Virus record (IMG/VR): IMGVR_UViG_3300020202_000078
Origin: a virus
Direction: 5' to 3' (one strand)
Length of the DNA: 64,000 nucleotides
The position numbers were made by a program, and so were the translations under genes. Positions 30,428 through 36,969 of the stretch are shown here, in pieces (position 1 is the stretch's first letter; the number at the start of each line of letters is the position of its first letter). The notes beneath the pieces are model-generated. The model did not search any database, was not told where the DNA came from, and saw only the letters and a list, made by a program, of their open reading frames with translations.

Positions 30428-31002
30428 GCGTTCGGCTCGTCACCGCACCGGGCTCCTACCCGGTCACCATCGAGGAGGTGAAGACCCACCTTCGCGTCGA
30501 TCACGACGAGATGGACGATCATATCGACCTGCTTATCCAGGCCGAGACCGCCTATGTCGAGGACTTCACAGGGCGCAAGCTGGTCCCGCAGACCTGGGAC
30601 TTCTTCACGGACGCCTTTCCGACCGATGGGCCGCTCGGCCTGCCCCTGCCGAAGGTCAATTCGGTGGTGGTGTACTACCTGGACGCAGACGGTGAGGAGC
30701 AGGCCCTAGATGCGGACCTCTACGTTGCCGATGTGGACAGTGAGCCCGCTCGGATAGGACTGGCGGCTAACGCCTCCTGGCCCACGGTCTACGCCGGGCT
30801 CAACGCAGTTCGGGTCCGGATGACGGTGGGCAATGAGGAGGCCGGTTCTTCGCCGCCTACGCCTGATGTGCTGGCGGATATGAAGCTCGCGATCATGCTT
30901 CGGGTTCAGGCCAGCTTTGATGGCGGGGACTCCGCAAGGGGCCTTCGCGAGACGGCGGAAAACTACCTTCGTCGGCGCCGGGTTCACCTCGCCCTTGCCT
31001 GA
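30424..31002 (+). CDS. Head-tail connector / gp6-like packaging protein
   Basis: Position and size; ATGA coupling to the upstream gene. Confidence 0.6.
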   Translation: MSVRLVTAPGSYPVTIEEVKTHLRVDHDEMDDHIDLLIQAETAYVEDFTGRKLVPQTWDFFTDAFPTDGPLGLPLPKVNSVVVYYLDADGEEQALDADLYVADVDSEPARIGLAANASWPTVYAGLNAVRVRMTVGNEEAGSSPPTPDVLADMKLAIMLRVQASFDGGDSARGLRETAENYLRRRRVHLALA

Positions 31003-31612
31003 ATGGCCGATCTGGGAAGCGGCGGCGGTCATCGCCTCCGGTCCCTCTACGAAACGGGAAGACGTAGAAAGCCTGAAGGGTCGCCTCCCGGTCCTGGCGA
31101 TCAAGAGAAACGTGGAATTGGCCCCGTGGGCGGACGCCGTCTACGGCTGCGATTACCCTTGGTGGAGGGCGGTTCGCGGGCTGCCTGACTACAAGGGCCT
31201 GAAGCTCGCATTCGCCCCCAAGGCGGTGGAGCAATACGGGCTGAAACCGGTGCTGATCCCTGAGCACGCCAAGTCGGACAAGCTGAGATTTGAAACGACG
31301 GGGACCGTGGGCGGCGGCGGCTGTTCGGGGTTCCAGGCCTTGAACCTGGCGGTTCAGTTCGGGGCCAAGCGGGTCCTTCTTCTCGGCTTCGACTGCCAGG
31401 ATCGAAGCGGGGTTCACTGGTACGGGCGCAACAACGCTCCGGGCATGAGCAATCCGTCACAGAACAACTTCGCACGGTGGAAGCGGTCGTTTGGAAACGC
31501 TGCGGAGCAGCTGAAGGGGAGGGTCGAAGTGGTCAACGCCTCGCCGATCAGCGACCTGAAGTGCTTTCCGAAGGGAACGGTCGCGGAGACCTTGGCGAGG
31601 TGGGGCCGGTGA
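30992..31612 (+). CDS. CstII/GT42-like (or DUF115/MAF-like) nucleotide-sugar transferase; start codon uncertain (track ORF 30917..31612)
   Basis: AAVIASGPS resembles IIAGNGPS of CstII; GGGGCSGFQALNLAVQFGAKRVLLLGFDCQD..HWYG resembles SGVYMCAVAIALGYKEIYLSGIDFYQ. Confidence 0.5.
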   Translation, partial: PLPEWPIWEAAAVIASGPSTKREDVESLKGRLPVLAIKRNVELAPWADAVYGCDYPWWRAVRGLPDYKGLKLAFAPKAVEQYGLKPVLIPEHAKSDKLRFETTGTVGGGGCSGFQALNLAVQFGAKRVLLLGFDCQDRSGVHWYGRNNAPGMSNPSQNNFARWKRSFGNAAEQLKGRVEVVNASPISDLKCFPKGTVAETLARWGR

Positions 31613-32286
31613 TCTTTATCGGCTGGGATCCCCGCGAAGAGACCGCCTGGAAGGTAGCGAAGGCTTCTGTCGAAAAGCACCTTTCCCGGCCGGTTCCGGT
31701 CAGTTCTCTGTGTCTGGAGGAGCTTCGCGAGGCTGGCCTTTACCGCCGTCCGACGGAGACGAGGGACGGACGGCTTTGGGACGTGATCTCCGGCGCTCCG
31801 ATGGCTACTCAGCACGCCTGCGCCCGGTTCCTGATTAAGGAATTGGCCGGGTCGGGGTGGGTGGTCTTCATGGATGGCGACGTGCTTGTGAGGGCGGACC
31901 TCGCGGAGCTGATCGACACCCTGGACACGTCGAAAGCGGTCTACTGCGTCAAGCACCGCCACGAGCCCACAGCGACCGAGAAGATGGATGGGCAGGTTCA
32001 GACCCGCTACTTCCGAAAAAACTGGTCGAGCATGATGATCATAAATTGCGATCACCCGGCCAACTCAAAGCTCACGGTCGAGCTGGTCAATACGGTTCCG
32101 GGCCGCGACCTCCACGCCTTTTGCTGGCTTGAGGATGACGAGATCGGCGCTCTGGACACAGGGTGGAATTACCTCGTGCCCACGGACGTCAAGATCGCCC
32201 ACTTCACCGAGGGTGTGCCGGACATGCCGGGATACGAGCAACAGCCCTTTGCCGACGAATGGCGGGAGTTCGCCCGTTGGGTTTAG
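31609..32286 (+). CDS. GT-A fold glycosyltransferase (DXD motif)
   Basis: VVFMDGDVLV; GTG start overlapping the upstream stop. Confidence 0.55.
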   Translation: MIFIGWDPREETAWKVAKASVEKHLSRPVPVSSLCLEELREAGLYRRPTETRDGRLWDVISGAPMATQHACARFLIKELAGSGWVVFMDGDVLVRADLAELIDTLDTSKAVYCVKHRHEPTATEKMDGQVQTRYFRKNWSSMMIINCDHPANSKLTVELVNTVPGRDLHAFCWLEDDEIGALDTGWNYLVPTDVKIAHFTEGVPDMPGYEQQPFADEWREFARWV

Positions 32287-33038
32287 GCGACCAGTTGATG
32301 GCTTCGGGAATGGCAAGGGGCGCCAAGGCCAGGGGCAAGCGGATCGCCTTCGGGGATGGCCGGCGTGTCATCTGGGACAAGCACAGCGACATCATCTTCC
32401 GCGACAACCCGAACATCGCCCGCCCCGGAACGGAACGGCGGACGGATATCGAGTGGGTCCATTACTACAAGGGGTCGCGGATCTATAACCGCCAGGACGG
32501 CGACCGGTGGGTCTGGAACATGGACTTCCGCGCCACGCCTGGGGAAATCTACCAAACCCAAGGGGAGAAGCAGGACGGCCGCCGGTTCGGCGCTGGATTC
32601 GTCCTGATCGAACCGAACGTCGAGGACTGGAAATCGAGCGCCCCGAACAAGGATTGGGGGCTGGAGAAGTACCAGGCTCTCGCCAACAAGCTGAAGGGCC
32701 GGCTGCTGCAGTTTTCGCACGGCAAGCGCCGGCTCAGGGGTGTGGAGACCATCACCGCCAAGGACTTCCGGGACGCGCTGGGGATCATGGCGAACGCCCG
32801 CCTCTACATTGGCCCCGAGGGCGGATTGCACCACGGCGCGGCGGCGATGGGGACCAAGGCGGTGGTTCTGTTCGGCGGGTTCATTCCGCCCCAGGTGACC
32901 GGCTACGAGACCCACGAGAACCTGACGGGTGGCGCGGAGGCCTGCGGCTCCCTGAAGCCCTGCGATCACTGCCGAAAGGCGATGGACAACATTTCGGTGG
33001 AGGAAGTCTTGGCTGCGGTGAAACGCCTGGATGGCTGA
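32259..33038 (+). CDS. GT9-family (heptosyltransferase-like) glycosyltransferase
   Basis: N-terminus VRPLGLGDQLMASGMARG; C-terminus ARLYIGPEGGLHHGAAAMGTKAVVLFGG. Confidence 0.6.
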   Translation: MAGVRPLGLGDQLMASGMARGAKARGKRIAFGDGRRVIWDKHSDIIFRDNPNIARPGTERRTDIEWVHYYKGSRIYNRQDGDRWVWNMDFRATPGEIYQTQGEKQDGRRFGAGFVLIEPNVEDWKSSAPNKDWGLEKYQALANKLKGRLLQFSHGKRRLRGVETITAKDFRDALGIMANARLYIGPEGGLHHGAAAMGTKAVVLFGGFIPPQVTGYETHENLTGGAEACGSLKPCDHCRKAMDNISVEEVLAAVKRLDG

Positions 33039-36003: not shown

Positions 36004-36132
36004 GCGCTGCGGCGGCGAGGGACTCAAACCCTCAATACGCCGGTCCTTCGGTATCACCATTCCGCCCGGCTCGCCGATTGCTCGACTTTCGCGTCTGTCA
36101 GTTAGGTGCGTTTTCCGCCAGCCGCCGCAGCG
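36003..36132. repeat. 13-bp perfect inverted repeat (gcgctgcggcggc / gccgccgcagcgc) spaced ~100 bp apart, upstream of the GT-B-like gene
   Basis: Seen directly in the sequence. Confidence 0.5.
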
Positions 36133-36147
36133 CAGGAAAGGTATCAC

Positions 36148-36969
36148 TTGCGGCTTGAACCGGCAAACACGGCATTCTTCCGTCCCAACGGCTTGAGCGC
36201 CTTCAAGGTCAGGCTTTTCGACAGGGTTGGGGCCGCCATCCAAGCTGCCGGCGGCGCCTATGTGAAGGGCGACTTCGAGCTTCTGGACCACAAGGTAAGC
36301 AAGGGCCGCATTCCGATAGTCGGCTGCACGCCGGAGCTTCGGCCCTACATCAACCGATGGAGGGAGGAAGGGCGGACGTGGGTCTACTGGGATCGGGGCT
36401 ATAATCGCCGGGTCTTTGCCACGGACCTGCCAACAGGAACGGACGGGGGCTACTACCGCTGGCAGGTCAACGGCTACCAGATGCGCGAGATCAGGGATGT
36501 CCCTGCCGACCGCTGGCGGGCCGCTGCAACGCCGTTGTGGCCCTGGTCAAAGAACGGCCGACACATCGTGGTCGCCGAGCCCTCGCCGACCTATCAGCGC
36601 TTCCACCGGATCGAGGGCTGGACGGAGCGGACGCTAGAGGCCCTGAAGGCCATCACAGACCGGCCCATCGTGGTCCGCGACAAGGAACAGCAGCGGTTCG
36701 GACGCAAGCTGCATGAGGATTTGAAGGGCGCCCACTGCCTCGTCACCCACGGCTCTAACGCGGCGGTGGAGGCGGTCATCATGGGTTGCCCGGTGTTCGT
36801 TCACCCCGACAGCGCCGCCTCCCTGGTGGGGCGAACCGATTTCGATATCGAAAACCCGATCTACCCCGACCGCGAGCCCTGGGTTCGGTCGCTTGCCTAC
36901 TCACAGTTCAACGAGCGCGAGCTGATCGACGGCACCCTGTGGCGGCTGCTTGGAGGCCCAAATGACTGA
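36148..36969 (+). CDS. Putative GT-B-like glycosyltransferase (capsule-polysaccharide-biosynthesis-like C-terminal domain)
   Basis: RBS AGGAAAGG before TTG; HIVVAEPS...IVVRDKEQQ..G.K....L.......VTHGSNAAVEAVIMGCPVFV. Confidence 0.45.
   Translation: MRLEPANTAFFRPNGLSAFKVRLFDRVGAAIQAAGGAYVKGDFELLDHKVSKGRIPIVGCTPELRPYINRWREEGRTWVYWDRGYNRRVFATDLPTGTDGGYYRWQVNGYQMREIRDVPADRWRAAATPLWPWSKNGRHIVVAEPSPTYQRFHRIEGWTERTLEALKAITDRPIVVRDKEQQRFGRKLHEDLKGAHCLVTHGSNAAVEAVIMGCPVFVHPDSAASLVGRTDFDIENPIYPDREPWVRSLAYSQFNERELIDGTLWRLLGGPND

Follow-up and report, generated by a model that had tools for sequence, protein, structure and literature searches.

We analysed a 64,000-nucleotide (nt) window from the virus record IMGVR_UViG_3300020202_000078 (IMG/VR), which represents a temperate siphophage of ~64% G+C with a Caulobacter-like bacterium as host. 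Within its head and tail morphogenesis operon, at 30995-36969 on the plus strand, lies a cassette of predicted glycan-modifying enzymes that comprises nine substantial genes and one 32-codon open reading frame (ORF). The original prediction, made from the nucleotide sequence, had regarded this locus as an unusual insertion; we find instead a widespread, conserved and mobile unit, consisting of a seven-gene cassette and a two-gene accessory pair, that recurs in hundreds of phages and has smaller versions in P1, D3 and the giant phages of Caulobacter. We give about an even chance to the proposal that the cassette specifies a cytoplasmic glycan-assembly pathway, which is expressed late with the head and tail proteins and decorates one or more virion proteins.

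Gene coordinates were obtained from an independent gene call on a 50-kb metagenome contig (L001), which is 99-100% identical to the window across the late-operon and cassette region, and were converted to window positions. This call and the ORF list place the genes where the original prediction had put them. The components are as follows (lengths in amino acids, aa):

30995-31612, plus strand: g1, Maf/DUF115/CstII(GT42)-like transferase, 205 aa, the cassette's hallmark gene
31609-32286, plus strand: g2, putative GT-A glycosyltransferase, weakly GT8-like, 225 aa
32277-33038, plus strand: g3, short GT9 heptosyltransferase-like enzyme, 253 aa
33031-33588, plus strand: g4, class I S-adenosylmethionine (SAM)-dependent methyltransferase, 185 aa
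33588-34196, plus strand: g5, second methyltransferase, of the cation-dependent O-methyltransferase type, 202 aa
34183-34281, plus strand: 32-codon ORF bridging g5 and g6, from the gene caller on near-identical contigs only, with no family evidence
34272-34910, plus strand: g6, PHROG-1962-type putative glycosyltransferase, 212 aa, with a DLD motif, part of the conserved core
34907-35401, plus strand: g7, left-handed beta-helix (hexapeptide) acetyltransferase, 164 aa, accessory
35401-36003, plus strand: g8, second PHROG-1962-type putative glycosyltransferase, 200 aa, accessory and travelling with g7
36004-36147, plus strand: spacer of 144 nt, the sole intergenic one in the cassette
36148-36969, plus strand: g9, GT-B enzyme resembling retaining beta-transferases of 3-deoxy-D-manno-oct-2-ulosonic acid (Kdo), 273 aa, the most conserved cassette gene

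The 32-codon ORF may not be a real gene; thus, nine of the ten genes originally proposed stand as substantial genes and the reality of the tenth is doubtful. By their predicted activities, the cassette proteins include five glycosyltransferase-like enzymes (g1, g2, g3, g6 and g9) and two methyltransferases (g4 and g5), to which the acetyltransferase g7 and the putative glycosyltransferase g8 are optionally added.

Homologues of these genes are numerous: we recovered 652 for g1, 1517 for g9 and 202 for g8, and 1169 cluster representatives for the g3 family, with few named sources among them (Hyphomonadaceae, Phenylobacterium, Caulobacter and Bradyrhizobium). Among 21 viral contigs whose upstream sequence sufficed for a count of gene presence, every one has g2, g3, g5, g6 and g9, and g1 and g4 are each found in 20; g7 and g8, present in five and eight of them, respectively, form an optional accessory pair. 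The median identity of g9 across related viral contigs is 64%, higher than the 55% of the portal and capsid proteins. This near-universal presence, together with a conservation of g9 above that of the portal and capsid, indicates that the seven-gene core (g1-g6 and g9) is strongly constrained.

The position of the cassette shifts among phages. It follows the adaptor gene in the window, in the relative L082 and in a prophage of Bradyrhizobium sp. LA8.1 (L084; GCA_040549355.1, contig JBEPTD010000001.1, ~155-175 kb), and lies between the capsid and portal genes in nine viral contigs. A Phenylobacterium prophage with an unrelated head module has it split into one part ahead of the head closure gene and another after the tail tube gene, and in another phage type (L085) the g7-g8 pair stands alone in the portal/capsid interval. 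The lytic giant phage CcrColossus carries homologues of g1, g9, the methyltransferase and the GT9 enzyme, and a g2-like gene, between its tail genes and lysis cassette. The retention of the cassette among morphogenesis genes despite these shifts favours a virion-linked role, and its presence in a strictly lytic phage speaks against lysogenic conversion. Cassette-free relatives within the same portal lineage have a compact connector region, and more distant relatives possess different gene sets built around g1. On one related viral contig (L026, 5500-6832) two tandem g1-type genes follow the head-closure gene; P1 also has a pair of such genes, pmgO and pmgP.

Reduced versions were identified in several cultured phages, namely the Pseudomonas phages D3 (orf7/orf12/orf13) and PAJU2 (ORF010-012), coliphage P1 (pmgO/pmgP/pmgQ), CcrColossus (gp126-131) and Klebsiella phage Eowyn. 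These sets hold true homologues of g1, g3, g8 and g9 (and, in CcrColossus, of g2), and as in the window their neighbours are late or structural genes; they differ in being smaller (3-6 genes), and their annotations read 'sialyltransferase', 'putative morphogenetic function' or hypothetical. In both D3 and PAJU2, the latter of which has its overall gene order in common with the window, the connector genes include a g1 homologue, a 275-aa protein placed in the g3 family by profile comparison (95% probability, E 2e-8) and a methyltransferase; the same trio is found in Eowyn. In P1, pmgO and pmgP are of the g1 type and pmgQ is of the g8 type (hhalign 98.4%), and the three genes belong to an operon with an annotated late promoter. 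All three were non-essential in a CRISPR interference screen (PMC10695390), and this, together with the relatives that do without the cassette, indicates that it is accessory rather than essential.

Every junction within the cassette overlaps by 1-14 nt, except for the 144-nt gap ahead of g9. The G+C fraction of the cassette (0.60-0.66) and that at third codon positions (GC3; 0.78-0.85) equal those of the flanking structural genes, and promoter-like and terminator-like sites are no commoner in it than in shuffled sequence. Therefore, the cassette belongs to the late transcript and its composition is not foreign; on both points the original prediction was right. The highest 19-residue Kyte-Doolittle mean among the cassette proteins is 1.56, from which it follows that none has a membrane helix, again as predicted. 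The spacer contains a perfect 13-bp inverted repeat, with arms at 36004-36016 (GCGCTGCGGCGGC) and 36121-36133 (GCCGCCGCAGCGC), that closes a ~130-nt structure with a minimum free energy of -60.9 kcal/mol (z -2.9 vs shuffles). In the relative L005/L089, which also carries g7 and g8, g8 overlaps g9, and hence the spacer is apparently absent there. An 80-nt tRNA-Trp called by ARAGORN inside g1 (31300-31379, plus strand) is probably a false positive; this interval matched no Rfam family at threshold.

Searches with sequence profiles and hidden Markov models supported the enzyme-family assignments of the original prediction, several of them weakly. The hallmark protein g1 matches phrog_4603 (E 1e-39) and scores 17.6 bits against PF01973 (MptE-like/DUF115), below the cut-off of 34.6, and several of its close homologues have a precomputed match to PF01973. 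Fold comparison assigns its catalytic domain to the DUF115/Maf/GT42 type, in keeping with the predicted DUF115/CstII likeness, and the closest match is Maf, a cytoplasmic protein O-glycosyltransferase. An ASGPS motif near the N terminus is retained across 38 sequences of the family (A14, S15, G16 and S18 invariant, P17 almost so), as are invariant His, Asp and Arg positions, and SGPSL is found in P1 PmgO and PAJU2 ORF010. GxGPS(L) is a nucleotide-binding motif known from CstII. Whereas the solved chain of Maf has 632 residues, g1 is a bare 205-aa catalytic domain and is encoded among phage structural genes rather than flagellar genes. Maf enzymes are reported to O-link N-acetylneuraminic acid or Kdo to flagellin, according to work cited in PMC7591256.

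For g9, searches against Pfam and PDB families gave no sequence-level match. Two independent methods found its fold to be closest to the retaining transferases that depend on cytidine monophosphate (CMP)-Kdo, specifically to the retaining beta-Kdo transferases WbbB (GT99) and KpsC (GT107), and an HP motif is present. Thus, the earlier GT-B-like assignment is refined to a beta-Kdo-transferase-like one; WbbB and KpsC act on lipid-linked glycans, and the likeness of g9 to them is one of fold, with no match in sequence. PDB sequence searches with g1, g2, the g8 family and g9 returned nothing useful, and for g1 and g9 the fold comparison alone was informative.

The GT9 assignment of g3 holds, with 26.3 bits against PF01075 (cut-off 22). 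Its family profile matches the lipopolysaccharide (LPS) heptosyltransferases WaaF (1psw, E 3e-6) and WaaC (2h1f, E 2e-5), in an alignment limited to positions 117-214, which correspond to the nucleotide-sugar-binding (donor) half. The family profile was needed for this, as a single-sequence search with g3 gave chance matches only. The solved WaaC and WaaF have 326-348 aa, whereas g3, at 253 aa, is ~75-95 residues shorter. We also considered g3 as a TibC-type protein heptosyltransferase and rejected this (E 1.4 for TibC vs 3e-6 for WaaF). Two members of the g3 family are fused to tetratricopeptide (TPR) repeats, and the combination of a glycosyltransferase with TPR repeats is an architecture known from protein glycosyltransferases, e.g., OGT. 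The two fusions (P0440 and P0482) are cellular proteins of ~750-770 aa, with a short GT9 domain ~40% identical to g3; one of their genes (L088, 8001-10301) adjoins a gene for a GT87-like membrane glycosyltransferase, a context that is uninformative.

As for g2, the proposed GT-A glycosyltransferase is met by a weak GT8 match (22.5 bits and E 9.5e-5 against PF01501, below the cut-off of 24.3); the protein matches phrog_28018 (E 4e-48), has a visible DGD motif and is 37% identical to CcrColossus gp129, annotated as 'nucleotide-diphospho-sugar transferase'. Of the two SAM methyltransferases that had been proposed, g4 is clear, with 39.5 bits against PF13649 and several further methyltransferase families above their cut-offs. 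The other, g5, is borderline (25.4 bits against PF13578, Methyltransf_24, just below 26.3), with weak Methyltransf_3 and CmcI matches, so that the CmcI likeness originally invoked is slight; weak PDB matches link it to family-3 O-methyltransferases, including a DADH motif. The hexapeptide acyltransferase is well founded, g7 scoring 86.2 bits against PF00132 (cut-off 27); its best NCBIfam match is the NeuD/PglB/VioB sugar acetyltransferase family, below the cut-off of that model. Both g6 (E 5e-8) and g8 (E 9e-32) match phrog_1962 ('glycosyltransferase'), and they are 24% identical. Their proposed paralogy is upheld on this identity and the shared PHROG, because the profile comparison of g6 with g8 is biased by the presence of g6 in the target alignment. 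A relationship of g2 to g6 and g8 was unsupported by hhalign (probability 0.6-6%). No sugar-nucleotide synthesis gene turned up in the other window ORFs scanned, and therefore any donors would come from the host.

Proven glycosylation of the phage particle is known only from a few mycobacteriophages, and its occurrence elsewhere is described as rare. In Corndog, the interval from the portal gene to the protease gene encodes an O-methyltransferase and three glycosyltransferases, and these glycan enzymes are absent from the proteins of its highly purified virions (PMC4351075). Glycosylated capsid and tail proteins are recorded for Che8, Corndog and Myrna (Freeman 2023, as cited in PMC12363180). 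Like the cassette in the window, these clusters (Corndog gp35-38; Che8; Myrna) combine soluble glycosyltransferases with an O-methyltransferase in the structural operon, beside the portal or capsid genes, and lack membrane proteins. They differ in belonging to phages of Actinobacteria and in having approximately four genes, as against 7-9 here; moreover, virion glycosylation is proven for the mycobacteriophages and putative for the window. The precedent is analogous and not homologous. The Maf-like, GT9 and Kdo-transferase-like families of the cassette point to Gram-negative donors, e.g., CMP-Kdo and adenosine diphosphate (ADP)-heptose.

The glycosylation of virion proteins, as envisaged by the original prediction, is made more plausible by the steady placement of the cassette in morphogenesis operons, its occurrence in lytic phages and the Maf-like fold of g1. 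Linkage to protein is favoured by the Maf-like g1, the TPR fusions in the g3 family and the constant location among structural genes. The label 'structural protein', given by the depositors of PAJU2 to its g1 homologue, also speaks for an association with the virion. In the pathway that we infer, including its donors, step order and acceptor, the enzymes would draw upon host cytoplasmic pools of CMP-Kdo or a CMP-nonulosonic acid (e.g., pseudaminic acid), ADP-heptose, uridine diphosphate-hexose, SAM and acetyl-CoA. The Maf-like g1 would attach the first ulosonic acid to a Ser or Thr of an exposed structural protein. The remaining transferases would then lengthen the glycan, with a heptose-on-Kdo step that would echo the LPS inner core, and the methyl- and acetyltransferases would cap it. 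The candidate acceptors are the proteins of the capsid and tail tube, together with the 446-aa repeat protein whose gene follows that of the portal. More tentatively, and with clearly less confidence than for the window itself, we suggest that many Gram-negative phages, including P1, D3 and the giant Caulobacter phages, may coat their particles with an O-linked glycan that mimics the inner core of host LPS, begun by a Maf-like enzyme with Kdo or a nonulosonic acid and extended with heptose by a short GT9 enzyme, all from host nucleotide sugars; the nine-gene cassette of the window would be the most elaborate known form of such a system.

The repeat protein (29087-30427) contains ~8 copies of a ~30-aa repeat, PxPKDGxSVTxxDVxPxIxxAVxKAVA, and its C-terminal stretch, YEPGDGVTWAGSWWIAQ, to our eye resembles a CBM5/12 carbohydrate-binding motif. 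The protein shares homology with PAJU2 ORF007 and has matches to the 'portal' PHROGs 1289 and 2271. It could be a glycosylation acceptor or a decoration protein.

Several observations weigh against the decoration of virion proteins. The literature searched held no report of a glycosylated virion for any phage carrying cassette genes, nor of glycosylated virions of Gram-negative phages in general. The capsid and tail tube proteins of the window are devoid of a Ser/Thr-rich C-terminal tail of the mycobacteriophage kind, the repeat protein was rejected as a universal acceptor, being absent from D3, CcrColossus and the Phenylobacterium prophage, and no acceptor protein can be named. A tblastn search of 50,697 phage records with g1, g5, g8 and g9 recovered no actinobacteriophage and no likeness to the Che8 gp110/Corndog gp38 type. 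The putative assignments of g2, g5, g6 and g8 are based on weak or annotation-level matches, and the GT8, GT9 and Kdo-transferase folds are those of the classic LPS-core and capsule-linker families. Finally, Pelagibacter phage Mosig has its g8 and g9 homologues among nucleotide-metabolism rather than structural genes.

These enzyme families also lend themselves to an alternative that we regard as rather unlikely, though the strongest of those considered, namely that, during lytic growth, the cassette remodels the envelope by modifying a host glycolipid (the inner or outer core of LPS, or a capsule primer linked to Kdo) on the side of the inner membrane that faces the cytoplasm. This might serve to block the adsorption of progeny or competitors to infected cells and debris, with the product leaving via host MsbA or ABC exporters. 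The matches of g3 to WaaF and WaaC, the resemblance of g9 to WbbB and KpsC, which are enzymes of lipid-linked glycans, and the GT8-like character of g2, GT8 being the family of the LPS core glucosyl- and galactosyltransferases, are all consistent with this. The original prediction had argued from the lack of an encoded flippase against O-antigen serotype conversion; this argument fails for the LPS core, because core glycosyltransferases of the GT8, GT9 and Kdo-transferase types are soluble or peripheral, without membrane helices, and their product is exported by the host. However, the cassette is translationally coupled to head and tail genes, has no promoter of its own and would be made only late, and it stays in morphogenesis operons across unrelated structural modules. 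Moreover, the best fold match of g1 is a protein glycosyltransferase, and the short GT9 enzyme matches the LPS heptosyltransferases in the nucleotide-sugar-binding half only. Known surface-conversion genes, such as GtrABC and the O-antigen conversion modules of D3, likewise supply phage-encoded glycan-modifying enzymes, but their products include membrane proteins, their expression is from the prophage and they are located close to the integration or immunity region; in contrast, the cassette proteins have no hydrophobic segment (maximum 1.56) and the integrase is ~29 kb away.

A protein target other than the virion, e.g., flagellin, pilin, another receptor or a non-structural phage protein, glycosylated for superinfection exclusion or host takeover, appears improbable. 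It would accord with the resemblance of g1 to Maf, a flagellin glycosyltransferase, and with the TPR fusions of two short-GT9 relatives; further, the flagellins of Caulobacter are O-glycosylated in the cytoplasm (PMC7591256), and the CcrColossus group of Caulobacter phages is flagellotropic (10.1101/2020.07.27.223248). However, late expression would leave little time to export a modified receptor, a lasting linkage to capsid, connector and tail genes is unexpected for host takeover, and the hosts of cassette-bearing phages differ greatly in their appendages.

To a similarly low probability we assign the notion that proteins of the g1 family are parts of the virion and not enzymes, or that the cassette yields a soluble or small-molecule product that has nothing to do with the particle surface. 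It draws on PAJU2 ORF010, the g1 homologue, which its depositors labelled a 'structural protein'; the same label on the Eowyn homologue was probably copied by similarity. Against this, the nucleotide-binding ASGPS motif and the invariant His, Asp and Arg are kept in 38 sequences, other transferases always accompany g1, and non-essential P1 homologues are unfit for a core structural protein. Glycosylation of phage DNA, as by the T-even glucosyltransferases, is very improbable, given that the match behind it is far weaker than those to Kdo transferases, that the window ORFs scanned yielded no hydroxymethylase and no other base-modification gene, and that ulosonic-acid and heptose transferase families are not known to act on DNA.

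What is new here is the recognition of a conserved mobile cassette and of its orphan homologues in classic model phages. If the cassette does serve the glycosylation of virion proteins, such glycosylation would be common among proteobacterial phages of soil and freshwater, with an enzyme toolkit different from that of the mycobacteriophages, and a first function would be at hand for the orphan genes pmgO/P/Q of P1 and orf7/12/13 of D3. It would also affect how particles are recognised by hosts, predators, antibodies and sticky matrices, with consequences for phage therapy and phage ecology. As homologues are present in classic model phages that are already in culture collections, the hypothesis is directly testable.

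The remainder of the window is organised as expected of a temperate siphophage. The early and lysogeny genes include an integrase (5-1516), YqaJ and ERF recombination genes, an S24-type repressor and an HNH protein. The plus-strand late operon opens with the small and large terminase subunits, followed by the S78 protease, the capsid protein and the portal. The structural genes around the cassette are:

25003-25620, plus strand: S78 protease
25652-27022, plus strand: HK97-fold capsid protein
ending at 29094, plus strand: portal gene
29087-30427, plus strand: repeat protein, 446 aa, directly downstream of the portal gene
30424-31002, plus strand: head-tail adaptor Ad1, gp6-like (PF05135, phrog_442), the upstream boundary of the cassette, overlapping g1 by 8 nt
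36962-37168, plus strand: 68-aa ORF between g9 and the head closure gene, from the gene call, with a weak phrog_29233 match
37155-37514, plus strand: head closure protein Hc1 (PF05521, phrog_25), the downstream boundary of the cassette

The adaptor and the head closure protein agree with the connector and tail-joining flanks proposed earlier. After head closure come a gp10-like protein, a tail completion protein, the tail tube (38416-38856), a chaperone and the tape measure, and then the tail tip and fibre genes. The structural region gave no megablast match to cultured phages. The order in the window at 25003-29094 (terminase, protease, capsid, small ORFs, portal) is that of PAJU2, in which, however, the protease and capsid are fused; the relatives L082 and L084 likewise have protease and capsid as one fused gene of ~660 aa. 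In the usual HK97 order, as in D3, the portal gene precedes those for the protease and capsid.

In Mosig (L086, 124.8-130.7 kb) the homologues of g8 and g9 belong to a ten-gene run beside ribonucleotide reductase and primase genes, which also includes two methyltransferases, two annotated glycosyltransferases, of which the g8 homologue is one, and a 'sulfotransfer' protein. In the window, a GDSL/SGNH hydrolase-like gene (51354-52157, minus strand; a weak match of 22.9 bits vs a cut-off of 32.9) lies just past the gene for the 1530-aa tail fibre (46398-50990), on the strand opposite to it, and could encode a sugar deacetylase or be a moron. Near the right end of the phage are genes for a protein with a Tlde1/YkuD-like L,D-transpeptidase domain (54261-54638, plus strand) and an SPFH/Band-7 protein (55405-56550, minus strand). 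The right end of the window has two tRNA calls, a doubtful tRNA-Ile of 88 nt (62454-62541, plus strand) and a tRNA-Asn (63245-63320, minus strand), which may mark host DNA or the attachment site; the integrase lies at the other end of the window.

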